Assembly: GCA_044892505.1 (NCBI GenBank) | Contig: CM097883.1 | Span: forward strand, 19,840,001-19,904,000 | Source: Schmidtea nova | Taxonomy: Eukaryota | Direction of reading: 5' to 3' | DNA: 64,000 nt | Shown: positions 17,089-59,701 of the stretch, piece by piece | Layout of the letters: the number at the start of each line of letters is the position of its first letter | Position numbering within the stretch: position 1 is the first letter of the stretch | Program-made: the position numbers and the translations under genes | Notes under the pieces: model-generated | Databases searched by the model: none | What the model saw: only the letters and a program-made list of their open reading frames with translations | What the model was told of the DNA's origin: nothing

Positions 17089-19081
17089 TCAGAGGCTCCA
17101 ATCATGAGCGTATTCGCTATCGCTCCGTTGAATCTCGTTTGCGTAGTAGAAATCTGGGTTTGGATCCCAACACAATTTCCTTTTGTATAGAAAGACCTCT
17201 TGCCATTCGACACATGCTGCCCATGTTGAACTTTACTCGCCCGTGGCCGGTGCTCCAGTAGGCAAATTAGTATACGGGATCAGTTAGTCTCCGGTGACCA
17301 GATTCCGTGGTCGCTCCAAAATTATATATCCCAGACGGTGGATTTCGGACACTGCTATTGGCTGAATAGGCGACGCTCTAGTGTATGTCGCCAGAAAATT
17401 TAAAATAAAAAAATGAATTTTAAATTATAATTTAAAACTAAAAACATATATTTATTCAAAAATAAACTAAATAAGTATTAACAACAGTAACAATCAGATT
17501 TTTTATTCTAAATTATTTTAAATTATTTAAATTATTTTAAATTATTTAATTATTTTAAATTATTAAATTATTTAAAATTATTTAATTATTTAAAATTATT
17601 TTTAAAATTATTTTTATTTAAATTTATTTAAAATTTTCGGGCGACATACATATAAATTATTTTATAAATTATAAATTATTTATAAATTATAAATTATTTT
17701 AAATTATTATAAATTATAAATTATAAAATTATAAATTATATATTATATATAAATTATTTATAAATTATTTTATACACATAAATTATTTTAAATTTTTTAA
17801 AATTATTTAATTATTTAAAATTATTTAATTATTTAAAATTATTTAATTATTTAAAATTATTTAATTATTTAAAATTATTTAAAATTATTTTTTAAATTAT
17901 TTTATAAATTATAAATTATTTATAAATTATTTATAAATATTAAATTATTTTAAATTATTTTAAATTATAAATTATTATAAATTATTATAAATTATTATAA
18001 ATTATAAAATTATAAATTATAAATTATATATTATATATAAATTATTTATAGATTATAAATTATTTTATACACATAAATTATTTTAAATTTTTTAAAATTA
18101 TTTAATTATTTAAAATTATTTAATTATTTAAAATTATTTAATTATTTAAAATTATTTAAAATTATTTTTTAAATTATTTTATAAATTATAAATTATTTAT
18201 AAATTATTTATAAATATTAAATTATTTTAAATTATAAATTATTATAAATTATTATAAATTATTATAAATTATAAAATTATAAATTATATATTATATATAA
18301 ATTATTTATAGATTATAAATTATTTTATACACATAAATTATTTTAAATTATTTTAAATTATTTAATTATTTAAAATTATTTAATTATTTAAAATTATTTA
18401 ATTATTTAAAATTATTTAATTATTTAAAATTATTTAAAATTATTTTTAAAATTATTTTATAAATTATAAATTATTTATAAATTATAAATTATTTATAAAT
18501 TATAAATTATTTAAAATTATAAATTATAAATTATTATAAATTATAAATTATTTTATACACATAAGTTATTTTAAATTATTTAAAATTTTTTAAAATTATT
18601 TAATTATTTAAAATTATTTAATTATTTAAAATTATTTAATTATTTAAAATTATTTAATTATTTAAAATTATTTAATTATTTAAAATTATTTAAAATTATT
18701 TTTAAAATTATTTTTTATTTAAAATTATTTAAAATTTTCGGGCGACATACACTAGAGCGTCGCCGGCTGAAAATGGGTTAGCCATCGGGGTTTTTCAGAT
18801 GTTTCCTGCATTTCGATCAACCAATTCAATTTACCCAAAGAGGGTTGGCGGGTTTCTAGCGGCCAATGGAAGTCACCTTCCCATCGCAGCTTGATTCTCA
18901 GTAACTTTTCGCTGGAAAAGAATCCCAATAAATCGTGTGTTCTACGCCAATGGCGCAAATGTCTCTTTATGTCGTCCTGGAGTCGTTTTGGCGCGTCGTT
19001 TAACGCTAATATATTTAAAAATGAACGAGCGGGGTCATTCTTCCACTTCGCGTCTTTATAGAGGTTACGCCGAACTTTCAT
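17089..19081 (-). pseudogene. Unknown ORF family, copy A, split by a foldback MITE
   Basis: 18765-19081 joins 17089-17368 in frame after removing the MITE and one TSD: RHLRHWRRTH..LRWEGDFHWP..WLIEMQETSEKPRWLTHFQP|IAVSEIHRLGYIILERP..EVFLYKRKLCWDPNPDFY. Homologous to copy B. Confidence 0.75.
17369..18764. mobile_element. Foldback/Mutator-like non-autonomous element with an AT-only internal satellite
   Basis: TIR GGCGACGCTCTAGTGTATGTCGCC(A/C)GAAAATTTTAAA at both ends. 9-bp TSD GGCTGAATA/GGCTGAAAA (8/9). Interior of AAATTATTT and TTATAAA repeats. Confidence 0.85.
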
Positions 19082-42799: not shown

Positions 42800-43667
42800 C
42801 TACAAGGAAAAGAATAAGACGATTTTATCGGTAATTACGTGGATAGCGCCGGCTCTTTCCCTCTCTCTGGGGGCCCTAATAAATCAATTCAATCCGGTTT
42901 TCCCCCAGTAATGCTCTAATTCGTTCTCCACTCATCATTCAATTTCACCCATTCAAGACAGAGAAATTTCTAACTACACATATATTTATTGAGCATTACA
43001 CCCATATACAAATCTATCACAAGTCAGCGAGTCTTTACCAGAAATCTAAGATATCCTGGTCACAACTCCGGTCGTCCCATCCGTGCGCATTTGGTTGGTA
43101 GAATTCCGGACACGGAATTCAGCACAGGGTGTCACGATACATGAAGATCTCGTTCAGTCGGTTGTACTTCTCATTTCGTAGTGAATTCATATCCTGATTT
43201 CCTGGAGCATTTGAGTAGGGACGAAATTCGCCGGTACGTCTACATTGCGGCTGATCTAGCAGCACGTATCCAATCTGCTTTAGCCTCTGGGTTGATAGGT
43301 GATTGAATGCGAGCAACCATTGAGGGGTGGCTTGTGTAATGTTCTGTGGACACCCGTTTGAATACAAAATTCTGACATAAATAGATGTTTATGAGTGTTT
43401 TATGTACCTCTGAAATTGTGTGAATCGGAGTTGTAAAAAGGTTGTTAGATATGTGAAAATTTTATTATTTGGTTATTTTATTGTACATTGTTTAGGATTA
43501 TGTGAATTGGGGTTGTAGAAAGAATTATTAAATATGTAAAAATTTTATTATTTGGATATTTTATTGTGCATTGTTTAAAAGAGTTTGTTAAGCGGTTAAC
43601 CCGCGCACAAATTAATAGAAATAAATATTTAAAAGAAATTTCTTAAAATTTCTTACTAATTGATCAA

Positions 43668-44768
43668 ATGATTTTCATTATGATAAAATTAATATATATT
43701 TTTGAATTTATCCACAGTATCTTTACAAACAAATTGTTGCAAGTCGATATTAGACTGACAGACATCGCCAGGAATATTGAATCTGTTAATGCTACGGCAA
43801 CTTATAATGTTGAATTTGTCAATATGAAGTGGAAAATAAACGTTTTTTATTACAAATACTTTCTAGATGTCAGACCATTGAAAGTTTCTGCTAACGGTAA
43901 ATGTTTGGAAGTGCCTATCAATTCCTATGGATACATCCCTACGGAGTCCAAGGAATCAATGTTGGGATATTTCCGCATCAATGATAAATATGGAATCAGC
44001 AGATTAGTTGAATCGCATGATAAGCGCTATCAACCGATTTACATCGCTAACGTGCCAGTGATTATTCTGCCTGAAATCACAGAAATAGTCGCCTTAGAAA
44101 TGAAGGGATTTATGGAACTATCTAAAACTTTAAAACTAAATAATTTTAATAAACATTGCTATGCCAAAGTTGTTATTGTGCTCTACTTTTATGTCAATCT
44201 TAGTGATAACATTGAATTTGTTACTGAGAGAGAGAAATTTATAAAGATCGAAATATGTGTACAGAATATACTTCTCCGTTTAAACTTGATATTTAATCAA
44301 CTCCCGTGGGAAATAAGGATCGAGTTCTCGGTAGATAACTTGCCTATTTTGACTCCAAAAATGTGCTTGAGTGACTTTAAAGGTCCCCGTTATCCGGTTT
44401 CAGTGAATAGTTATGGCAATTTGAGTTTAAGTGCCCGGGAATTGCTCGAACTTTTTAAAAGTGATTCTTCTAGTAGATGTTTTAAGTTGGAAGGCCAAAT
44501 GCCGTTCACCGGTATGGTTTTAAGGTTGAATGCTACTTTCTATAGATCTTTGACAATGATCGTCCAACATTATTACATCGACATTATTTTCGGATTGTTT
44601 GTATTCATTGTCTGTACAATGTGCATTTTTGAAGGTTCTTATATGATGAACTTATTAGTCTCAAGAAAATTACGATTTTATTGTCAATTGATGTCCTATC
44701 AAAATCCGAAAGTGAATGTAGTTAGAGTATGTACTGTACTATCAAATCCATGTGTGTATCATTTTTAA
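43668..44768 (+). CDS. Unknown 366-aa protein with a two-fold internal repeat and a hydrophobic TM-like segment
   Basis: W.I...P.K....V.(I/V)NSYG occurs twice. Hydrophobic segment YYIDIIFGLFVFIVCTMCIF. The ATG lies inside the left TIR. Confidence 0.65.
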   Translation: MIFIMIKLIYIFEFIHSIFTNKLLQVDIRLTDIARNIESVNATATYNVEFVNMKWKINVFYYKYFLDVRPLKVSANGKCLEVPINSYGYIPTESKESMLGYFRINDKYGISRLVESHDKRYQPIYIANVPVIILPEITEIVALEMKGFMELSKTLKLNNFNKHCYAKVVIVLYFYVNLSDNIEFVTEREKFIKIEICVQNILLRLNLIFNQLPWEIRIEFSVDNLPILTPKMCLSDFKGPRYPVSVNSYGNLSLSARELLELFKSDSSSRCFKLEGQMPFTGMVLRLNATFYRSLTMIVQHYYIDIIFGLFVFIVCTMCIFEGSYMMNLLVSRKLRFYCQLMSYQNPKVNVVRVCTVLSNPCVYHF

Positions 44769-44996
44769 ATGGTTATTCAATCTTATGAGATCCTCCTTGG
44801 GTCATTACCCGATGGTTTCGATAGAGCTTTGGTTCGACCCGGAATCCTCCTTTCCCTGTTATCCGACAAAACTAAAGTATATTCATATTTTTTTGTAAAT
44901 TTATGTAAATTAATCAGCGAGGGAACAAAAATAAAATTGATGAATCGGCAACCACGCCAAAAATCTGCATACCTTGGTGTGGTTTCCGGTTCATCA
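44573..44996 (+). repeat. LTR or LTR-part; 419-bp direct repeat with 47364-47782
   Basis: Two substitutions noticed between the copies. Internal TGATGAAC (44644) and terminal GTTCATCA (44996) form 8-bp inverted termini. AATAAA at 44930. The second copy lacks the final CATCA. Confidence 0.85.
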
Positions 44997-46409
44997 AATT
45001 GGTGTCAGAAGTTACTCCCTCCCTCCAGTAACATTTATATTATCCTAAATAACACTTTATTTTATTCTATTCCCACATTTATTATTTTTCCTATTCCTTC
45101 CCAAATGGAGGCGCTACAATCCTGGGCGGGACTAACTGAATTGAAGGTACATGGAAACCACATCATAAGAACAACCGGGTTTTTAAACATTAAGAGGAAA
45201 CAAGTATCACACAAGTTCCTCTTCCGGTGTCTTAACAAGACTTCCGGATGGCAACCTCTGTGTCCGACGAAGTCACATTTGTCCTCAATGTCTTCATTGC
45301 TCCTAGCAATTGGCGTCCCAAGGGAAACACACCGCCACTTCTTTGTCAAGAAGTCCCAATCGGCGACACATACCCCAGTCATCACCACCTATTTCAACAT
45401 TATTCCCCGTTTGACTGGAGGAATGCAAACCGATGAGGCTAACGCAGACTGTGAAATCAGTCACATACAACCGCCAACACAACAAACAACACCAGTTATT
45501 ACCCCAATACCGTTTTTCCTAGACGGCGTTGGCTCCCCACAAACGTGGTTCCTGGCACTAGAAGTGACTCCAACCTTTCTACCCACTCAATCTCAAGGGC
45601 AGAAGTTTGGTGCACTCTTGTCCATGCTTCCAAGCACGATTTACACCACATTGTCCACCGCCATTGCAACTGCAGCCACGGCAAGTGAGCCCTACAACTC
45701 ACTGAAATCTGCAGTGCTAGACGCTTACCGACCAAAATTAGATCATTTATATGAGGCTTGGTTCCGAAATCAACCTCTCAATAATGAAAGACCAAGCGCC
45801 TTCCTCAAGCGAGCCAAGGAACAACTCGAGAGGATCCAGGCCGGTCTTACCAAAGACGACGCTCTACTCCGTAGGTTCTTTCTAAAAGCACTACCTACAT
45901 CAGCACAGTCCATTCTGGCCGTTGTTCCAAACACAACATTGGAAGAACTAGCCAAAATTGCCGACAAGATCGTGGAAATCAACACGTCACCTGTTACTCC
46001 ATCACCGGTAGTCGCAACAACAAGCCTCCCACACGCCGAATTAGGAGCACTAGTCAGCGCCATAGCTGCTTTAACATCGAGGATGGACAATTTAGACGCA
46101 AGTCTACACACCCGAGGTCGAAGTCGAACAGACAGTCGTGACAACAATCAAAAACGACATCGGTCCACATCTGCACGAGGGCTCATATGCTCCTACCATA
46201 AGACGTACGGAGACAAAGCCCAACATTGCTATGTCGGTTGTAGGTGGAACAACCGACTTCCAACATGCCTGCCTCGCAACCTTTGCATCTATCACGCAAT
46301 ATTTAAGACCGAGGCCAAAACATGCTTGGAAGGCTGCCGTTTCCATACTGGTAATCACAATACCAGTAACGTTAATCAAAATTCGTATAATAAGCCTTCG
46401 GAAAACTGA
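44769..46409 (+). CDS. gag: Gypsy gag (CsRn1-like CHCC type) with a long upstream in-frame extension
   Basis: P.F...P..WF..LE ... PY..LK..L ... RPS.FL ... LR..FL..LP ... LA..AD pattern. Two C-x2-H-x9-C-x3-C motifs. Confidence 0.88.
   Translation: MVIQSYEILLGSLPDGFDRALVRPGILLSLLSDKTKVYSYFFVNLCKLISEGTKIKLMNRQPRQKSAYLGVVSGSSNWCQKLLPPSSNIYIILNNTLFYSIPTFIIFPIPSQMEALQSWAGLTELKVHGNHIIRTTGFLNIKRKQVSHKFLFRCLNKTSGWQPLCPTKSHLSSMSSLLLAIGVPRETHRHFFVKKSQSATHTPVITTYFNIIPRLTGGMQTDEANADCEISHIQPPTQQTTPVITPIPFFLDGVGSPQTWFLALEVTPTFLPTQSQGQKFGALLSMLPSTIYTTLSTAIATAATASEPYNSLKSAVLDAYRPKLDHLYEAWFRNQPLNNERPSAFLKRAKEQLERIQAGLTKDDALLRRFFLKALPTSAQSILAVVPNTTLEELAKIADKIVEINTSPVTPSPVVATTSLPHAELGALVSAIAALTSRMDNLDASLHTRGRSRTDSRDNNQKRHRSTSARGLICSYHKTYGDKAQHCYVGCRWNNRLPTCLPRNLCIYHAIFKTEAKTCLEGCRFHTGNHNTSNVNQNSYNKPSEN
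45000..45012 (+). promoter_or_regulatory. Primer-binding site, tRNA-Leu-like
   Basis: TGGTGTCAGAAGT 3 nt after the LTR end, complementary to a 3' end ACUUCUGACACCA as recalled for tRNA-Leu(CAA). Confidence 0.8.
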
Positions 46410-47363
46410 AAACGCCATCGAACTCCCCCACAGTTTTTGATGGCGATCCCATAACCTGTGGACTCTTTTCTGTTCCCGCCGTACCTCATTCCCAGAACTC
46501 TAACGAAGTCGATGCCCCCATTCACTTCGTTATCGATAGCGGTTCCATCATCTCATTCCTACCTAATCGGTTCGGAACTGATAATAATCAAAAAAGGTCC
46601 TTCCGGACAGCCAGTGGCGAAAACTTTTCCACTATTGGAACAAAAAACTTAATATTCCAAATTCCTGGTCTGTCCAAAACTTTTTCATGGACATTCCAAG
46701 TCGCCGAGGTGATTCATCCACTCTTAGGTGCCGATTTTCTTGATGCTGAAGGTTTACTCCCTGATTGCAGAGAACGCAAATTAATCCTCTCACAACACAC
46801 ACCTAGAGCTCAAGTTCTTGACCACCTCTGTAGTGACGCCCTCAATCTCTTACCCGCCACACCTTGCTATATACAACAATTACTAAAGACGTTCCCAAAC
46901 GTCGAAAAGAGATCAAACAATCACAAACAAACCCTCTCTTTTCTACACGTCATAGTCACCAATAACGGTATGCCTAACAGAGAACGTATGCGACCACTCG
47001 CGCCCGAGAAGCTCACACTTGTCAAGGAAGAATTCAATAAGCTACTCGAAGCCGGTACTATACACCGATCGAATTCCCCTTGGGCATCACCCATCCATGT
47101 GGTTACAAAAAAAGACGGATCTATCCGCGCCTGTGGTGACTACAGACGCCTCAACAAAGTCACTATACATGACTCTTACCCCATGCCACTTATATCAGAC
47201 GTTCTTTCGAGATTACCTGAAGCTACAATCTTCTCCACTCTAGATCTAAAAAAGGCTTACCACCAAATCCCGGTAGCACCAGAAGACATCCCGAAGACCG
47301 CTGTTATCACCCCTTTTGGCTTGTTTGAATACAAATACATGCCATTCGGTCTCCGAAACGCAG
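46390..47363 (+). pseudogene. pol: Gypsy pol, truncated (aspartic protease plus N-terminal half of RT)
   Basis: In the -1 frame relative to gag: FVIDSGS, LLGADFL, SPWASP, DYRRLN, LDLKKAYHQIP, MPFGLRNA. It then joins the LTR repeat at 47364; no YxDD, RNase H or integrase. Confidence 0.92.
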
Positions 47364-48886
47364 TTACATCGACATTATTTTCGGATTGTTTGTATTCATT
47401 GTCTGGACAATGTGCATTTTTGAAGGTTCTTATATGATGAACTTATTAGTCTCAAGAAAATTACGATTTTATTGTCAATTGATGTCCTATCAAAATCCGA
47501 AAGTGAATGTAGTTAGAGTATGTACTGTACTATCAAATCCATGTGTGTATCATTTTTACATGGTTATTCAATCTTATGAGATCCTCCTTGGGTCATTACC
47601 CGATGGTTTCGATAGAGCTTTGGTTCGACCCGGAATCCTCCTTTCCCTGTTATCCGACAAAACTAAAGTATATTCATATTTTTTTGTAAATTTATGTAAA
47701 TTAATCAGCGAGGGAACAAAAATAAAATTGATGAATCGGCAACCACGCCAAAAATCTGCATACCTTGGTGTGGTTTCCGGTTTTAATTTTATCATAATGA
47801 AAATCATTTGATCAATTAGTAATAAATTTTAAGAAATTTCTTTTAAATATTTATTTCTATTAATTTGTGCGCGGGTTAACCGCTTAACAAACTCTTTTAA
47901 ACAATGCACAATAAAATATCCAAATAATAAAATTTTTACATATTTAATAATTCTTTCTACAACCCCAATTCACATAATCCTAAACAATGTACAATAAAAT
48001 AACCAAATAATAAAATTTTCACATATCTAACAACCTTTTTACAACTCCGATTCACACAATTTCAGAGGTACATAAAACACTCATAAACATCTATTTATGT
48101 CAGAATTTTGTATTCAAACGGGTGTCCACAGAACATTACAGCTTGCTCATTTTCAAATTGTATAAACCACTTCGCAGACGTTTCCGTGATTGCTCCTTGC
48201 GGCATTGGCCAAGAGAGGTCTCCTTCCCACCGCACTCGTAGTTGGAACAACAATGTGGTATCACGTACCGATGGATTAACGTGACTCCGCATCCATGCTC
48301 GTAGGTGTCGTTCTGCTGCATTCTTGATACTTATCGGGATAGTTTACGAATTTATGAATTTCATCTCCTTGTCAGAGCGACGCCTCCGCGGGACTTTATC
48401 CTGGTGCATTTTCTGAATAAAGGGTGGAAGAATTAAAGACGGGGTCGGGTAACTCTCGCATCATTTCATCATGCATCTCTCAAACCTCATCATACCTTGT
48501 CGCTCTCAATTCACATCATACATCATACAATCGACATAAATGATCATTACCTGAACGCGTTTATTCGAATTTTTGTTCATCTTCATTCAGTGGCGGACTG
48601 GCTACTTATTCTCAGGGTTGCTGATGTACCTCAGGGGCCCGTAATTGCATGCAGGGTCACGAATTCTTTCTAAACAAATTTTACCTCTATGTTAAATTTA
48701 CGTGAAAAATGACTTTTGTGCACACTATGGTAGTTACACACCAACATTGTAATATCATTTGATTACCCATTAAAAAGAAAATGATTAGATAGGCTACTTA
48801 TTAAATATTACAGCTCATTTAACACCAGAAAACAACACGTACAGTATGTGGAGCAAGTAACAGGCAGAAATAAACAGGAGAAAATG

Positions 48887-51782
48887 TTAGTACAGTAAAG
48901 CACGTTTTAATTCGTTAGAACTTTTTGCAAGGTGGTCTATGATGACATCATGATCTATGGGGAAATTCTTCTCTTCTAAAGCAATCAACATTAGTGCTTC
49001 TAGGTGTGGTTGTCCAATCGTTGAGCGCAATCGACTTTTTATTATTTTCAATTTGCTAAATGAGCGTTCACAACTGACCTGTGTACAGCTGAGTGTCATG
49101 ACCATCTTATACACAATGTACAAATTTGTGTAGGAGGAAACAAATAAATTAAGGAAAATCGAGAGCTTTGAAAGCACATACAAGACAGTTCTGACAAGGA
49201 ATGTTACTTTTCAAGCATATATCTTGAGTGTGCTCGATATCTTCATCAAAATTCAATGGACTGCTAGCCTCATTAACAGAAATTTCAGTTTGAAGGAAAT
49301 TACTGGACTGTATATCCCGGTAGCTGAGAGCAAACGAGACCAATTCATCACGCAAATCACACACATCTACATTCGCCATGCCTGCCAATTTTAAAAGAAG
49401 TGACGGATTTTCTTTGAGATAGGATTGGATGCTGTCAAACTTGTTCGGATCCAAAAGGCTTATGTCCATATACAGATCCTTGTTGGCAGAAAATCTTGAC
49501 TGGACTTGTGTAATTGCATTGTCAATTACACATTTAAAAGTGTCAATTTCAAATTTCCGGTTTGCAGAAAATGTGTATTCTTTTTCGTCATCTGCTTCAT
49601 AATTGAATTTCTTTGGTACACGATGTGGTCGGTGTGTATCATTTGCAATAAGACTTGAACTAACACCATGTTCTGTCAGCAAATTGATTTGTTCGATGAA
49701 CTTTACAGCTTTGGAGTGTATTTCATCAAACTTGTCTCGCATACAAAGTAAATGTCTTTCCAGATTGGTGATCATATTTAAGGCAGTCAAGATATCAAAA
49801 CCCTTGGTCTGCAAGTATTTTGAGACAGGTGATGTCATCAAGAAGATTTCCATGTACATGAAAGCAGATAAAACGTTTTCAAAGTTTTTCCAGTTGTCAT
49901 ACAATGACGATGCTTGAAAAGACACCTTGCTTTGAAATTCCGTAGACTGTGCAATTTCGTTTAATGTGTCCAGGACTAATATGAACCTTTGAGGATCGGG
50001 TTGACTTAAAGAGCCAAATATTGATTTCAAAGAATTTTCCCTAGCACTCCAACGAATCTCAAATATCTTTTTTAGCTTTACCTGTCGAGGTAGACCTTCT
50101 GAGTTTTGGATCCAGACAAGCATGCGTTTGTGAGATTCACTAAAAAAGTTAGCAGTGGAGTTGATTAGTCCAAACAAATTTTTTGTGCTTAAACTGGTGC
50201 TGGTTGCTTGTGCCATAACTAGATTGAGGGCATGTGCATAGCAGTGGATGTAGACCGAATTAGGTGATTCAGATGCAATTCGACTTTGGACACCTTGATA
50301 TTTGCCAGACATATTGGCAACTCCATCAAATGACTCTCCCAATATTCTTTCAACTTTTAAATTATCTTGAGTCAAACTGTCACGCATGATGTTGAACAAG
50401 TTTTCCCCCGAGGAAGAGTTAACAGAGATAAGGTGGTAAAGATGTTCATGAACAACACCTTCACGGACATATCGCAACACAATAGGTAATTGGTCAGTAA
50501 CGGATACATCTTGTGTAGAGTCCATTTGGATACTAAATGTGTAAATACCTCGTTCACTTGTTTGGTCAGTTGCTGTTTAATACAGTTACCAATAATAATC
50601 AAAATTTTGGATAAAATAGTTTTTGAAAAGAATGTTATAAATGATCCTCGTCCTGTTCCAGTTGAATAATGAGATTTTCTCTGCAACTTAGAAATGTGAT
50701 TTTGCAAAACTGAATCATATTTGGCCATTAGTAAGATCAATTCGAGATAATTACCATGATTATTTGAGAAATCCTTCAGAGAAGCGAAATTTTCATTACG
50801 ATAAGCTCTGAAACCAATGCACTGTTTTGCTAAGTACATTATTATATCCACAAGACGATGTAATATCAAGCGATTTGCTTTGACTTCTTGCTGCCGTTTT
50901 GCAATCATGTCAGTGTTTACATAATTTTCAATATTTTGTTCGCTTTTAGCGCGTAAATAAGCATTGACACTTTGCTTGTGGGTATCAGATTGTTCATGCT
51001 TCTGCACTTTAGCGTAAACATTTTTGACTGCTATCAAACAACCATCGTTTGCAAAAGGATGTTGAGCTGTCATATCGTCATCGAAACACATGCATAAAGA
51101 GCAATATAATTTAGAACTGATTGAATTCAATGAAAGCCATGTTCGGTTTACCTTCTCTCCATCGGATATTTGTCGATAATATAAAATCGAATAGTGTTTA
51201 AGGGTAAAGGCATATGTGGTTGTAATGGATGTTTGGCGATGAATTCCATCTTATGTACTAAGGAGGCGGATGAATGTGGTCGCTTAAACAAATCAATGCA
51301 CATTGCTTCATGGTTGTCATGTTCTTCAAAATGTTGCATTTGTTCTGATACAATTGCTCGTACAGAAGTTTGAGAGGATTTGACGATACCATTCTCATCA
51401 TTTTCGACTTCTTGAGAAAGTATCAGTTCAGATGCTGGAAGCTGTTCCGACTGTTGTGACAGTCCAATAATAGATGGTAATATTGAGCTACATATGACAG
51501 GCTGTTGTGAATGCATGATAGAATTGATAACTATCGGTAACATTGATTCTTTGCTGATGGACTGACTTTCTGAATGTGATGGGTTGACTGTTTCTTCAGT
51601 GCTGGCTGTCCTGCACAAATTAAAATAACATAAAACACACATAATGAAATAGGGCCTATATATGATTGCATGACTCACATGACAAATGATAATTTTCTTT
51701 GTTTTGGATCACAAGCTGCCTGGCCAATCTTATTTTGAGATATCAATTTTCGCTTTTCTGCACCTGATTTATGTTTGTACAT
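48887..51782 (-). pseudogene. ZMYM/TTF-type hAT transposase with one intron and three frameshifts
   Basis: Exon 1 MYKHKSGAEKRK (51782-51679), intron 51678-51611 (GTGAGT..TGCAG), RTWLS..LYCSLC, FSIQMDSTQD, FDG..NMSG, HCYAHALNL, RWSAR, and the SCERSFSKLK dimerisation motif. Confidence 0.92.
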
Positions 51783-52842: not shown

Positions 52843-55800
52843 TTGCATGCACAATGCAGAAATAAACTTCCAACAATGATGAAAAAATTTTGTGAAACCT
52901 ACGAATGCTTAGTTGAATTTCTGCACATTGCCATTCAGAGCACTGGTGCAGAAAAAATGAGTTTAAATGATTTCATTTCCCTATTTTATTTCTTTAAAAC
53001 AGGGCAAAAACATTCTATTCAGGAAAAGAAAGCCAAAACCGCATGGGAATTCGCACGGAAACTGATCAACCACCCGAATGGAAGGACGGCCGTATTAATC
53101 AATGAATATTTTAATGAACCCTACTGGTTAAAGAGGGACCCCGCGGTGATGGACCGAGCAGCCAAACTTAGCTGGAAAATGATTGGAACTTTCTTTGTAA
53201 AGAAAAGAGCGGTATTTTGTGATGAATTGATATTCTATATCATAAATTTTATATACACTTTTAAAGACATTTTTACAAAACATTCATCTCTTAAATATTT
53301 CATAAATGATCTACAATCACACCCCTGCTACCTAAAAATTGCTGAAAAAGAAACCTTTAATATAACTCCCTCTAATGAAGGGAATTATAATCAAATTAAA
53401 AATACTAGGAACAATTATATTTTAAATATTGAACAAAATAATAAAAATTTACAAAATCCCAAAATTAATGAATATTATAATAATAAAAATACGGATAGTT
53501 ACTATAAAGACACCATAAAAAATTTTAAATATGACAATTATTTTCTTAATGACAAAAATAAAAATTATGATTATAAATACTATAATAAAACTACATATGA
53601 AAATTTTAAAAATACCAATAATAAAAATTTCAAAAATAACAATTTAGAAAATTATGATAACAATGTCTATAAACTATTAAATAATAATGAAACTTTTCCT
53701 AATAAAAATATTAAAAAAGCATATAATTTTAACAACTCGAAAAATGATCTCCTTATAAATATACGTGATACAACTGACGAATTTTTTTCAAAAATTAAAA
53801 TCATTTTTTCAAAAATCAAAAATCAAAAAATATTAAATGATTACCTCTATATTTTTAAAAACAAAACATGCTTACTTTTTGAACAAAATAATTTGTTTAA
53901 ATATATACCATTAAATCTAACTTCCAACAATGATGAAAAAATTTTTCGACCTCCTTCGGAGGCCGAAAAAACTAATGGACGCAGCTCACAGGCCTTCGGC
54001 CTGTTCGCTGGTCAGAATAAAAGCTCAGAAAACTTATATAACACAAGTGATATGCCACCTACTGAAAATAGCAGAATATGTACTGCGAGAAAATTATACT
54101 CCAAAAACGAACTAAGAAATTCTACGATGAAACTTAATCAGGAAAAAACTCCACCATATGCAAAACCAATAATAACAGCATTTAATCAAAATTCACTTCA
54201 GACGAAAAAATCCGAAATACCTAAAAAAGATGAATTTAGATATATAAAACCAGCCATCTCAACAAAAAACAAGTATGACCTACTTATAAATGTTAAACCA
54301 ATTCAAGAAGACAGAAAAATACCTACAAGCCAAACTCCTCCATATGCAAAACCAATTTTAACATCAACAAATATCTTCTCACAAAAAAACATCACCGTTA
54401 ATAAAATAACCATTAATAAAAACTCCAACAATAAATATTACGGAGAAAATAAAAAAGAAGCAATAAAGTAATATGCCTAGATGAACAAATAAATGAATGT
54501 AAAGCTATTATTAAAGATATTGAAAACAATATTATTGAAGAAATCACTGAACAGAGAAAAAATATAAATACAGTATCTGAAATCACTCCTTTACCTGCAA
54601 TAAATGATACCTCTCCAAATGCGAAAAAAAATAACTTAACTAAATCATTCGACACTGAAAACCTACCTAAAGAATTCCTATCAAATAATAAAAATCTAAA
54701 AAAGAAACATTATTATGATGACCCAATTAAATGTGTTATTGCGTCAAGAAAAATCCAAAGGCTTTGTCGAAATAGCGAGAAAAATTTATCATATCTAAAC
54801 GAAAAAATTAAAAATCAAGAACAAGAAATCACTAATCTCAACAATCTTCTCTCAGCCTACAAATGTAAAAATCAAACAAGCTGCCAAACACCACCTCACT
54901 GCTCCAACCAAGGTACAAGCCATAGTACAACTCCTGATCCCTCTATCTCTTATAGCCCAGATTCATCTTTAAACTCTAGTGTGGGCAAAAATGTTGACAT
55001 TGACAATTCTATCTATAACTCACCAGATAATTCCTCATGCAATTATACTGAAGTCATCTATGCCCAAACACTCCTGAATATGATAATACTGATAAAACTG
55101 AAACCCCGATTCCTGCTTATAATTCTCAAAAAGACTTATTTGATGGCACACCATTAATCATCCCTGAAACTTTTAAATCATCATTACCAGTTTCTCAAAC
55201 ACTTTTTCAAGACACCTTGTCTAAACCACCACTTAATAGCACTCCAAATAGATCTACTCTAAATAACACCAATAATTCTGTTATAAATATTAACTCAACG
55301 ATTACCACCAAAACACCTGAGATGACTATAAGTATTGACAAAGACGATTTTTTGAACCAAAATAACACCTCCTTCGAAGACCTTAATCTATCATATACAT
55401 CAGACCATAATGACTCCACTTTTGCTCAATGTCCAATTGACGAATCAATTCTAGATAATACTATTAAAGGTAAAAAGAATTGTAACTTCGTTGTTGAGGG
55501 GGAAAATGGGAAAGTTTTCGAAATAGCCCACAATTTACAAGTCACAAACGTAACAAAAATAATAAATATCACAAAAAAAATATACGAAGACAATAACAGC
55601 ACAATAAATACCCATAATAGCAGCCAACAAAACACAAGCACAAATTGCAATTTTTTGGAAACAAATGAAACCATTCTTAACACAATAAATGACTCTCACC
55701 TATCAGACACACAAACTTCACACAATAATTCGAAAAATAAAATCCCACTCAAAAGAAACAATTTTTTCAGGAAAATGATCCTACTTTCAGCTATAACAAA

Positions 55801-58800
55801 GACCAATATTGTCACTGCTTACTAGGAGGATGCTCCAGAGTTTTACTAGGAGCAGATAGAATAGAAGAACTTAACAATCACCTCGCAACACATAACGAAA
55901 GAATCACAATAAAAACCACATTCAAATGCAACCTTTGCCTATCTAAAAACTGATTCTTTTTAGCGAAATTCTACAAAACATCAACAAAAATCACCCAACA
56001 CAACCTCCCAAACAAACCAAACAAGACGCCATTTACAATAAAAAACTAATGTTTTTATCCTTCAACAAAGAAGGCACCATTCTATGTAACATCAATGATC
56101 TCACTAGCTGCCCAAACAACCTCACAATCTACTCAACCTATGACCAAATAAATAAACACCTCCACCAAAAACATAGAAAAAAATATGTGACATAAATAAA
56201 ATTAAATGTTATTGTAATACTGAACTTGAGCATCATAACATTAAAGAACACCATAATGAACACTTAGGAATAACACCTGAAGACCCTAACACAATAACCA
56301 TTCCTGACACCATCCTTGTTTCCAACTCTGATATAGGTTCTCATTGACTAGACCAAAACACCATCTCTCTTTTCTTCCACAACTTTGTAAAAAAGACTTC
56401 CACGATCTTTATAGAACCTTTCATAGGCCTTTCTCTTATTAAAAAAGACTTCAATACCTTCTTTAACAACTTCCCTTTCAAAGACTACCCTAAATGGAAT
56501 GAAATTATTTGGCCTTTAAAAATACAAGGGCACCTCTGGATTGTTTTTTATCTTAACAAAAAAAATAAAATAGCTACTATTATTGACCCAACCTCTCCAG
56601 AAAGCCTTGAAAAACATGAAAATATCTTTTTCGATATATACAACGCCATCAAAAACATACACTCTATAATCACACCAATTAATATACCACCAACCAGCCT
56701 CAATATCCCTACTTGTAACAATATTCCACAATCTAACTTTTTTCTCTGCGGCATCCTCAAGGACCTTAACCACAATAATCCAATAACCACTCCATGCATA
56801 GATGACATTAAATATGACCTAGATGAACTCATCAAAAAAAACCATCAACGAAAGAAAACCCGACACAGATGCCACAAAATTTTACAACCACATTAAAAAT
56901 CTGACTGTTTCCCTCAACAACAACGAAGATACAGATTCTAATCTTACTTTAATTAAAAAAATCCACGAAGTTATTTTTAATAATAAATACTTTAAAAATC
57001 AATTAAAAAGAATATTAAATATAAAAAAATTAATCTTACTTATACTCTTAGAAGAAATTACAAAATTAAATGTAAAAAAACGATTGATGACATTATATAT
57101 AATAAACCAAATTTTTCTACTCCAGACCCACTTAATATTTCAAAACATTTTTTAACAAATAAAATTAACCTTAAAAATCTTAGTAATTTATCAAACCAAC
57201 AAATCGATGTTATCACCCCCCAATTCTCACTTATCGAAACTATAACCATCGATGAACTTACGAAAGCCTTCGAAACTCTAGATAAACGTTCCTCTCCTGG
57301 TTCAGATAAAATTTCCTATAGAGAATGGACTTTAATGGATCCTGACCACTCATTCCTTACTGCACTCTTCAACAATATTCTTAGAAATAAAAATAGTCCA
57401 TTAAGCTGGAAAACCTTCAAAACCAAACTTCTGCTTAAGCCTGGTAAAGACAACAAAACCTTCGAACTTTCCTCTTGGCGACCCATAGCTATCCTTGATA
57501 CTTCTTATCGCATATTCTCTTCTGTCCTTAACCTCAGACTCCTTGAATGGATCAAACAATTTAATGTTATTTGTCCAAACCAAAAAGCAATCGGCATCCC
57601 TGCTGGCTGTTCCGAACATAACACTGTCCTATCACTCATTAACGAAAGATCCTTCAGACGAAATACTGATATTAACTTCATATGGCTGGATCTTGCTGAT
57701 GCTTTTGGCAGCGTCCCCCATGATCTAATATGGCATACTCTTGAAAACCTTAATTTTGACACACAATCAATTGACCTTCTAAAAAATATGTATGATGATG
57801 TATACACTTTTTATGATTGTGAGGGAAACCTTACGAATAACATCAAAATTAATAATGGGGTGAAACAAGGCTGCCCCATGTCTATGACCATCTTTTGCCT
57901 TGCTATTGACTTCATCTTAAAAGACATCCTCCTTAACTTTCCTTATATTATCAATGACTACAATATAAGTATTTTGGCGTATGCAGATGACATAGTTCTG
58001 ATAAGTGAGAATAGGGATAAAATGAAAGAGATGCTCAATAGAACAATAAAATTAACTGATAAAGTAGGCTTAAAATTTAGACCAAGCAAATGTGGTTATT
58101 ACCAACATAAGAGAAACCATAACGATGAACCGCTCAAAATATATAATGAAAATATCCCCATAATCAACGAAGAGAATCTTTATAAATATCTAGGTGTGGG
58201 TTTTGGAGAAAAGGGTAAACATAACATCGATAATATCCTAGAAAAGGCACTTTTTGATACTGAAAAGATTTTTCAATCCGACCTCCACCCCACTCAAAAA
58301 ATTCACGCGTATAAAACTTTTATTCACTCCAGACTAATATTCCCCTTTAGAAATTGTAACGTTAACCACATGATCCTAGACTGTAACCGCAATAAGTCCG
58401 TCCAACATAGAGCTAAACAACTAGGCTTTGACCAAAAAATTAAAAAACTCTTAAAAAACCTGGTAAATGATAAATTTCAAAACATAAACAATAACTTTTT
58501 CTACGCTAACATAAACCTTGGGGGTATTGGAGTCACACCTAGTATAGACGAATATCTTATTCAAAGCATTATTCATTTTATTAGACTCCTTAACTCTAAG
58601 GATGAAAAAATGAAAAACTTTATATTAAATGAACTTATTGAAGCTACCCAAAAACGATTCAGAAATAAACAAATCGAAATGGCAGCAGCAATAAAGTGGA
58701 TAAATGGTGATTTGAAAGGGGATAACAGCGGTACTTTTTCTATCTTTTCTAAATTTCGAGATTCGGTTAACAGAATCTTCGAAAAATTTAATATAAAAAT

Positions 58801-59701
58801 TAAAATAGTTCAAATTGACAACACTTACCAACTAAACATTACAAAAGATGAATATAATCATTATATAAAATCTGATAATCTAGACCAAGGCTCTGAGGCC
58901 ATTCATATTTTGACAAGTAAATGGTACGCTGACTGCTGGAATAAAATGACCTGCCAGGGACACATATCTAAAACTATAAGTGATAGTGGCTTTTCCTCAC
59001 ACCTCCTTAAATATGATGAACTAACTGACCAACAATTTTTTTCCCTTATAAAAGCTCGTAATAATAGTCTAAATCTAAACTACTCACAAAATAGAAAAAA
59101 GAACTCCCTTAATATTAACTGTAGACTTTGTAACAAAGACTGGGAAACCCAAGCCCATATTTTTAATCACTGTCCAATTACCCAAAACGCTAGAAGAAAC
59201 AAGCATACACATGTGCTTGAAAAAGTTAAAAATTTTTTCATAAATAAGGAATACCACGTTGACATAGAATGTGCGCCTCCGGGAGTAGAAACCACCCTAA
59301 AACCTGACTTAATTATTTAAAACTTAAATGATAAAAATATTCATATTGTAGACATTAAGGTCCCCTATGACACACAAATAAATTTTGATAACGCGAGAAA
59401 AGATAACTATGATAAATACCTAAAACTCTCCCTAGACACCGCCAAAAACAATAAATGCATAACAACCCTCTCAGCAATAGTTGTAGGAACAATAGGATCT
59501 TGGGACAGTGAAAATGACAAATATCTTAGAAAAATAGGATTAGGTGAAACAGCTATTAAGTCACTTGCCAAAATATGCATGAAAGCAGCAGTTACGGCTA
59601 GTTTTAAAATATATATGGATCACATTACTAATAATGCTCCAACTAATGTTAACCTCCCTTCAAACAACCATTTATCTCCTCAAACAACCATTAAACTTTA
59701 A
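52843..59701 (+). mobile_element. NeSL-clade (RLE-type) non-LTR retrotransposon, disrupted
   Basis: Ulp1-like protease (H*LDQNTI..IIWPL..GHLW..IDP..PQ..LCG, about 56330-56800), RT (SSPGSD, WRPI, DLADAFGSV, GVKQGCP, LAYADD, YKYLG), CCHC knuckle CRLC..H..C, KPD...DIK endonuclease across one TAA at 59318-59320. Frameshifts in the 5' half. Confidence 0.9.
57335..59320 (+). CDS. Reverse transcriptase plus CCHC region of the NeSL-like element
   Basis: 661 open codons containing all non-LTR RT motifs. Confidence 0.93.
   Translation: MDPDHSFLTALFNNILRNKNSPLSWKTFKTKLLLKPGKDNKTFELSSWRPIAILDTSYRIFSSVLNLRLLEWIKQFNVICPNQKAIGIPAGCSEHNTVLSLINERSFRRNTDINFIWLDLADAFGSVPHDLIWHTLENLNFDTQSIDLLKNMYDDVYTFYDCEGNLTNNIKINNGVKQGCPMSMTIFCLAIDFILKDILLNFPYIINDYNISILAYADDIVLISENRDKMKEMLNRTIKLTDKVGLKFRPSKCGYYQHKRNHNDEPLKIYNENIPIINEENLYKYLGVGFGEKGKHNIDNILEKALFDTEKIFQSDLHPTQKIHAYKTFIHSRLIFPFRNCNVNHMILDCNRNKSVQHRAKQLGFDQKIKKLLKNLVNDKFQNINNNFFYANINLGGIGVTPSIDEYLIQSIIHFIRLLNSKDEKMKNFILNELIEATQKRFRNKQIEMAAAIKWINGDLKGDNSGTFSIFSKFRDSVNRIFEKFNIKIKIVQIDNTYQLNITKDEYNHYIKSDNLDQGSEAIHILTSKWYADCWNKMTCQGHISKTISDSGFSSHLLKYDELTDQQFFSLIKARNNSLNLNYSQNRKKNSLNINCRLCNKDWETQAHIFNHCPITQNARRNKHTHVLEKVKNFFINKEYHVDIECAPPGVETTLKPDLII

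Follow-up and report, generated by a model that had tools for sequence, protein, structure and literature searches.

A Ty3/gypsy element of Schmidtea nova with a gag frame opening inside the long terminal repeat, a putative ubiquitin-like spacer and an ADAM10-like cargo

The window analyzed here, a stretch of 64,000 nucleotides from Schmidtea nova (assembly GCA_044892505.1, contig CM097883.1, positions 19,840,001 to 19,904,000 of the forward strand), contains an internally deleted copy of a Ty3/gypsy retrotransposon. The whole inserted unit occupies 43335-48140 on the plus strand (4806 bp, with TG...CA ends and no N inside), and is flanked by a 5-bp target-site duplication (43330-43334 on the left, 48141-48145 on the right). 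Two open reading frames (ORFs) of this element, a cargo ORF of 366 amino acids (43668-44768, +) and a long gag ORF of 546 amino acids (44769-46409, +; protein P0002), directly adjoin each other in the same frame. The only in-frame stop between them (44766-44768, +) stands immediately 5' of the ATG at 44769, while the corresponding triplet in the 3' copy of the repeat (47557-47559) is a sense codon, as an earlier note on this DNA had correctly described. The long gag ORF is composed of a 147-codon arm, which runs through the long terminal repeat (LTR), the primer-binding site (PBS) and the leader, followed by a putative ubiquitin-like segment and Gag.

The 5' LTR appears to span 43335-44998 (1664 bp, +), and the evidence supports the location of the cargo ORF inside it, together with the start of the long gag ORF. 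This assignment is based on the TG start at the target duplication, on the PBS that follows at 45000, and on the 3' repeat copy, which also holds cargo sequence. A 419-bp direct repeat (44573-44991 and 47364-47782, with two mismatches in 419 positions, at 44615 and 44768) is not the whole LTR. A high-depth contig (44496-44657) spans 44573 without branching, indicating that the repeat start is the deletion breakpoint of the window copy and not the LTR start. The first 358 bp of the LTR (43335-43692, +) are AT-rich and include an 83-bp tandem duplication. The part at 44639-44998 (+) is common to a cargo-free sister LTR, as indicated by loose contig ends before 44639 or before its duplicate at 47430, which were found in three of the four public runs (one study) used for comparison; two of these show a purine run and then a TGTAAT start. 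This sister LTR, of about 378 bp, would represent the ancestral type. Loose ends were also present in all four runs at 44784-44916, pointing to a sister subfamily whose LTR differs in its central part.

The PBS (45000-45012, +), recognized by its motif, is of the tRNA-Leu type and is read in frame inside the long ORF; the 12-base motif was assigned to tRNA-Leu in the part of PMC8905726 concerned. Gag proper (45423-46409, +; 328 amino acids) carries a DUF7041 domain and two CX2HX9CX3C knuckles at 46188-46337 (amino acids 474-491 and 506-523 of P0002). It is followed in the -1 frame by pol (46394-47363, +), which encodes a DSG protease and the first half of the reverse transcriptase (RT) and is cut at 47363. 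Other copies run on in RT at this breakpoint in 4/4 runs. The window copy, with its RT cut and without RNase H or integrase, is non-autonomous. The 3' LTR remnant (47364-47782, +) is a copy of 44573-44991, without the last 7 LTR bases.

The stretch 44646-45422 (259 codons) contains one in-frame stop, compared with a mean of 12.7 in dinucleotide shuffles, and none of 5000 shuffles had one stop or fewer, whether the given frame or the best one of the three was scored. Moreover, 27 of the 28 stop triplets on the plus strand of this stretch fall in the other two frames (P = 1.8e-4). The earlier note had claimed that roughly 260 codons of LTR, PBS and leader are open beyond chance and had proposed a shuffling test, and the result bears the claim out. 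Two deletions that shift the frame in the LTR end and leader, at 44965-45021 in run X3 and at 45056-45115 in run X4, each occur in one contig of low depth and were taken as putative decayed single copies.

A scan of metagenomes for RT yielded 35 loci, among which seven match the window Gag and none matches the cargo or the ADAM10-like protein P0003 discussed below. Four close relatives have DNA upstream of gag (L001, L005, L007 and L018) and share 63-76% RT identity with the window element, L018 over half the query. In L005, L007 and L018 the start codon of the gag frame is an ATG inside the LTR, and the frame crosses the same Leu-type PBS and has the same layout as the long gag ORF of the window. 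The number of open codons from the LTR ATG to the spacer is 147 in the window, 159 in L007, 134 in L018 and 190 in L005, with no stop in any of them, against 7.7-10.5 stops expected for all four (8.6-10.5 in the relatives) and 0/2000 shuffles each. The ATG lies 141, 136 and about 155 bases after the LTR start in these relatives, and the ATG at 44769 is located 148 bases from the start of the cargo-free sister LTR. L007 has no Met from codon 50, in the LTR, to codon 343, in the capsid, and a whole Gag started at an AUG must therefore begin in the LTR unless spliced. In L005, which was read across the 99-base terminal overlap of its contig, the PBS is in another phase, yet the frame stays open into Gag.

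What the earlier note called nominally non-coding is thus, in the relatives, the 5' part of the gag ORF. Since three cargo-free relatives keep the LTR-PBS-leader frame open, the open frame is independent of the cargo and, as far as sequence can tell, likely predates it; the ancestral membrane-protein-Gag fusion that the earlier note proposed does not agree with this. The feature is absent from more distant loci: the gag frame of L009, which has a Trp-type PBS, opens 42 bases after the PBS, and L010 and L012-L016 have gag frames of 329-344 codons with a Met at codon 16-17. Searches with Gag, RT and L018 found no relatives in viral contigs, RT had none in prokaryote genomes, and the long Gag ORF had no match in a word-index protein search. 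There was likewise no support for a membrane helix conserved in the arm (maximum hydropathy 0.94-1.83). The distance from the PBS to the Gly-Gly end is 422 bases both in the window (45000-45422) and in L018 (2759-3181), and the two arms have no detectable similarity. The order pol, purine tract, one LTR, PBS and gag was observed in the contigs of L007 (1-8349), L018 (2419-2758) and L005 (3986-4417), which may represent either elements in tandem with one LTR in common or circular assemblies that have collapsed; two near-identical units (99.85%) are present in L007.

The segment directly before Gag (45210-45422, +) ends in RLTGG, and a Gly-Gly just before Gag is present in 5/5 aligned ORFs (the window and four relatives). 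The spacers of three relatives match the Pfam ubiquitin model below its cut-off, with E values of 3.3e-5 for L018 (24 bits, cut-off 25.4), 0.0024 for L001 and 0.082 for L007, and the L018 spacer also matches ISG15 (E 2.8e-5) and ubiquitin structures. Between L007 and L018 the proportions of nonsynonymous and synonymous differences (pN and pS) are 0.29 and 0.85 in the spacer and 0.21 and 0.79 in Gag, and spacer identity at the three codon positions is 0.59/0.80/0.38. Judged by these comparisons, the spacer is under purifying selection in the relatives, and its pN/pS, being like that of Gag, indicates that it is translated in L007 and L018. The window spacer would be a degenerate form, recognizable as ubiquitin-like only by its position, its motif and a weak model. 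That model, with a predicted local distance difference test score (pLDDT) of 49, was built with the rows of the relatives and is not independent of them; its first half folds as strand-strand-helix. The 47 Foldseek rows listed for it are ubiquitin-fold entries by title (E 0.19-0.69), and a wide structure search returned ubiquitin-fold matches with Z 4.4-5.6. A hidden frameshifted ubiquitin in the window leader was also sought by DNA alignment and a three-frame profile search, which did no better than shuffles. No report of a ubiquitin-like domain before a retrotransposon Gag was found in the open-access literature (titles and abstract beginnings).

The cargo ORF is homologous to P0003, a reprolysin/ADAM10-like protein whose closest solved structure is ADAM10 (E 4e-15). 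It encodes, in order, a hydrophobic N-terminus, an ADAM prodomain, the start of the protease domain, an in-frame jump, a stalk, a transmembrane helix and 39 LTR-encoded codons. Identity to P0003 is 58% over amino acids 2-247 (43719-44456) and 50% over amino acids 552-613 (44463-44648), while amino acids 248-551 of P0003 have no counterpart; the zinc site, the disintegrin and the Cys-rich region are gone and the frame is kept. Active ADAM proteins have an HExxHxxGxxH zinc site, disintegrin and Cys-rich domains, none of which is present in the cargo; lacking the zinc site, it is, on its sequence, protease-dead. The predicted transmembrane segment (amino acids 295-331; 44550-44660, +; hydropathy up to 2.47) aligns with the stretch of P0003 that matches the ADAM10 transmembrane region. 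Compared with the ADAM10/Kuzbanian sheddases, the cargo shares the prodomain, protease-domain start, stalk and membrane helix, whereas the HExxH motif, disintegrin, Cys-rich region and the tail of the homologs are absent.

An exhaustive protein search gave three relatives of the cargo at E <=0.001, all of them reprolysin-type ADAM proteins; it had no match in the word-index protein search, no usable match in Atlas and no relative in metagenome contigs. The ADAM homology ends at 44648 and identity to the sister LTR begins at 44639, and the cargo might have been captured by a template switch of the reverse transcriptase at this 10-base overlap. The cargo is likely a disabled ADAM piece captured from the host, likely taken up later than the LTR-started Gag frame, and likely a separate ORF upstream in the LTR. 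The genome is AT-rich and rich in repeats, and an ADAM10-like source of the cargo makes an invertebrate animal likely as the host. Nothing relevant to ADAM capture appeared by title in the open-access literature. P0003, P0004 and P0005 are very diverged ADAM10-like proteins with an intact zinc motif, each forming a one-member cluster, and may represent a lineage-specific expansion from which the cargo was taken. The structure model of the cargo (pLDDT 35) was too poor for use, and ADAM17 prodomain entries, the most probable Foldseek rows (E 0.15 and 0.48), were given no weight. The isolated ADAM10 prodomain inhibits ADAM10, as far as described in PMC6232257, and by analogy we favor a role of the cargo as a membrane-tethered ADAM prodomain, which would reduce shedding by host ADAM10. 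The data agree about equally well with a neutral passenger.

Taken together, we consider it narrowly probable that this Ty3/gypsy element makes a Gag precursor opened in the LTR, that its ubiquitin-like spacer is cut by deubiquitinases, and that the ADAM10-like cargo came later as a separate ORF. Genomic RNA would be translated from the LTR ATG at 44769 into a precursor of arm, spacer and Gag, and host deubiquitinases would then cut after the Gly-Gly and release free Gag. The cargo would have arrived afterwards, ending at the stop before the old ATG, and, if expressed, would be a membrane-tethered prodomain. A spacer of this kind would make Gag indifferent to upstream translation, which explains how the arm stays open while its amino acids drift; only the openness and the cut site need keeping, which fits an arm that is unalignable between lineages.

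The LTR, PBS and leader of retrotransposons are usually treated as non-coding, and the Gag start is usually placed after the PBS. The clade of the window element appears to code through all three, and to borrow host ubiquitin-cutting enzymes for the maturation of Gag. If this is true, Gag starts are mis-annotated in this clade, and the presence of the spacer would account, in a way that can be tested, for the ability of such elements to accept host genes in frame within the LTR. The cargo, being derived from ADAM10, would be a candidate transposon-borne inhibitor of host shedding, although no selection on it is visible. Maturation by ubiquitin cutting has been described for pestiviruses, and none was found for retrotransposons in the open-access literature. 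According to the portion of PMC8310069 concerned, ubiquitin in the polyprotein of cytopathic pestiviruses (bovine viral diarrhea virus (BVDV) CP1 and CP Rit) is a processing signal cut by cellular hydrolases. The proposed mechanism is alike in that a host-cut moiety gives the downstream protein a free N-terminus (PMC8310069). Unlike the recent, near-intact ubiquitin of these RNA viruses, the segment described here is old, diverged and clade-wide, stands before Gag, and its cleavage is putative (PMC8310069).

Several observations weigh against this explanation. The window spacer has no Pfam or PDB match, the L005 spacer has no Pfam match, and when the window spacer was compared with the profile of the relatives, 570 of 2000 shuffles scored as well (hhalign 0.2%). 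A Met follows immediately after the Gly-Gly in the window and in L001, and L001, the nearest relative, has only 44 open codons before Gag, with a PBS absent from the 164 bases that precede them. Because L007 and L018 are closely related to each other (68% Gag identity), the comparison covers two to three lineages plus the window, and the window arm cannot be aligned to the arms of the relatives (z 0.3-1.7). As well, the 39 codons between the ADAM part of the cargo and the ATG at 44769 are open, as in 61 of 2000 shuffles, which this explanation leaves to chance. Among 40 of the 534 between-copy differences, 21 fall in the cargo-Gag frame; synonymous changes make up 0/4 in 44649-45422 and 2/12 in the ADAM part (a fraction of 0.25 expected at random), compared with 5/5 in Gag (5/5 versus 2/16 for everything upstream, P = 0.001). 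An amino-acid constraint on the cargo is therefore not visible.

Alternatively, cargo and Gag might be made in this family as one polyprotein of 913 codons, the stop being private to the window LTR, with a cut at the Gly-Gly that gives a membrane-bound ADAM decoy and free Gag, and with the LTR serving as a slot for cargo in frame. Points in favor of this reading are the sense codon of the second repeat copy, a cargo that is in frame with the ATG through the open 39-codon link, the deletion of 305 codons within the ADAM gene, which also preserves the frame, the AT-rich, promoter-like stretch that precedes 43668, and the lack of any indel in 43673-47904 among 12 of the 24 indels. However, the ATG of L005, like that of the window, is immediately preceded by a stop, and in the AT-rich LTR sequence of the cargo-free L007 (452-559) and L018 (2489-2554) the frame is already open for 36 and 22 codons before the first ATG, which means that an open link needs no fusion; a non-AUG start or a former cargo is possible in these two. 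Moreover, the cargo shows no visible amino-acid constraint, and no junction-spanning fragment (X at the stop) was found among proteins of 30-501 amino acids in the word-index search. Position 44768 does not appear among the same 40 of 534 differences, and either state may be that of the family. We regard this alternative as fairly unlikely, and quite doubtful the wider proposal that the LTR is a slot in which captured host mRNA is made as a polyprotein with Gag, freed at the spacer, and now holds an ADAM10-prodomain inhibitor of sheddases.

A further explanation holds that in the window lineage arm and spacer persist as a relic in decay, that Gag now starts at the Met at 45423, and that the frame is open only through recent relaxation. 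The Met after the Gly-Gly in the window and L001, the short frame of L001, the spacer that is unrecognizable by sequence in the window and the 0/4 synonymous differences of arm and spacer, all mentioned above, are what such a relic would leave, and clusters of this Gag family measure 270-310 amino acids. It is nevertheless hard to see how, without selection on the frame, all detectable similarity could be lost and yet no stop arise in 218 codons; RLTGG is also intact, and three in-frame AUGs (44769, 44940 and 45105) precede that Met. A relic is improbable, and the LTR-opened precursor with its later cargo is kept as the preferred reading.

The right end of the unit is formed by an inverted copy of the first 358 LTR bases (47783-48140, -). 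The two arms differ by one mismatch, and the inverted piece reaches the TG terminus and no further. The left end of this LTR element is thereby repeated in inverted form at its right end (43335-43692 and 47783-48140), with the target duplication intact, which is an observation in its own right, and no report of inverted LTR ends was found in the open-access literature. Such an end likely arose when reverse transcription switched template late, before integration, to the left end of the linear cDNA; the product would offer two left-type ends to the integrase. The form of the flank without the insertion, with one copy of the five target bases, was found in contigs of 4/4 runs. The flank is itself repeated, and the empty sites may therefore be paralogous and not allelic; the insertion target (42800-43334 and 48141-48700) is repetitive, and each of the four runs has several diverged copies of it.

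The near-perfect inverted ends, TG...CA and the 5-bp duplication, which is unlike the 4 bp reported for CsRn1-like elements in the relevant part of PMC2582038, would suit a DNA transposon bounded by terminal inverted repeats of 358 bp, which holds an ADAM gene and a piece of a retrotransposon. But the membrane helix of the cargo, encoded by the direct repeat, occurs at both ends, the left arm continues into the cargo in other copies, the TGTAAT start is common to the cargo-free sister LTR, and no transposase is encoded in the unit. An assembly error at the inverted end is opposed by one contig of run X4 (48114-48279), which matches the right junction with 0 differences, though only 27 letters lie inside the element, below the 31-letter rule. 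Both versions together are very improbable. That the openness reflects chance, base composition or the shadow of an antisense ORF (45062-45388), the last of which the earlier note had raised, is hardly credible: this is one window among very many, picked for its openness, but the shuffles preserve composition, three relatives are equally open, and the three minus frames of 44769-45422 hold 19, 6 and 16 stops, so that the antisense ORF, which has no Pfam match, is not the cause.

The earlier note had compared the arrangement with two retroviral systems. In mouse mammary tumor virus (MMTV), the sag ORF lies within the LTR, encodes a membrane protein and is expressed from the U3 region of the 3' LTR. 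The likeness holds for position, since the cargo is likewise a membrane-protein ORF borne by the LTR; the cargo differs in being ADAM10-derived and in frame with gag, and a likeness to superantigens is neither found nor implied. In murine leukemia virus (MLV), glyco-Gag is an in-frame N-terminal extension of Gag from an upstream start, a type II protein with Gag in the lumen. Here only the upstream in-frame extension is alike. A hydrophobic N-terminus and one helix (amino acids 295-331) in the cargo predict that Gag would be cytosolic, and P0002 has no helix above 1.6; the read-through product is thus predicted as type I, opposite to glyco-Gag, and a ubiquitin-type Gly-Gly site before Gag would free it from the membrane part, so the second comparison falls.

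The assignment to Ty3/gypsy is based on Gag, a DSG protease and RT in the window (RT cut), on the order RT-RNase H-integrase in the relatives L001, L002 and L005, and on the PBS after the 5' LTR, the TG...CA ends and the short target duplication; direct terminal repetition in the window copy is limited to 419 bp, as an inverted piece of the LTR makes up the right end. In a tree of RT, which included unnamed loci only, the window element did not fall into any supported small clade. According to the account of CsRn1-like Ty3/gypsy elements (PwRn1, AgCR) in part of PMC2582038, these are alike in the CX2HX9CX3C knuckle, the DSG protease and the TGT...AAA LTR ends, and also in a pol that overlaps gag in the -1 frame, as in 9/14 AgCRs. 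They differ in their tRNA-Trp PBS and 4-bp duplication, in place of the tRNA-Leu PBS and 5 bp (one insertion) of the window (PMC2582038). Beyond these elements as described there, the window element has two knuckles, an LTR-started gag, a ubiquitin-like spacer and an LTR cargo (PMC2582038). Since primer tRNA and duplication length depart from the CsRn1 definition, the element was not filed in CsRn1. Steamer elements, as far as PMC8905726 describes them, have the same 12-base tRNA-Leu PBS motif, and differ in their LTRs of 153-219 bp and their single gag-pol ORF.

Three other features were identified in the window. The stretch 17369-18764 is an AT-rich tandem array between 40-bp inverted repeats (95%), possibly a fold-back element. 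Broken ORFs are located at 49149-51678 (-), one with a weak DUF4371 match, and presumably belong to a hAT-type DNA transposon. Finally, 52843-59320 (+) contains a 542-codon Asn-rich ORF, which has no Pfam match, and a 661-codon RT with zf-RVT, and resembles a long interspersed nuclear element (LINE) with a strong strand skew.

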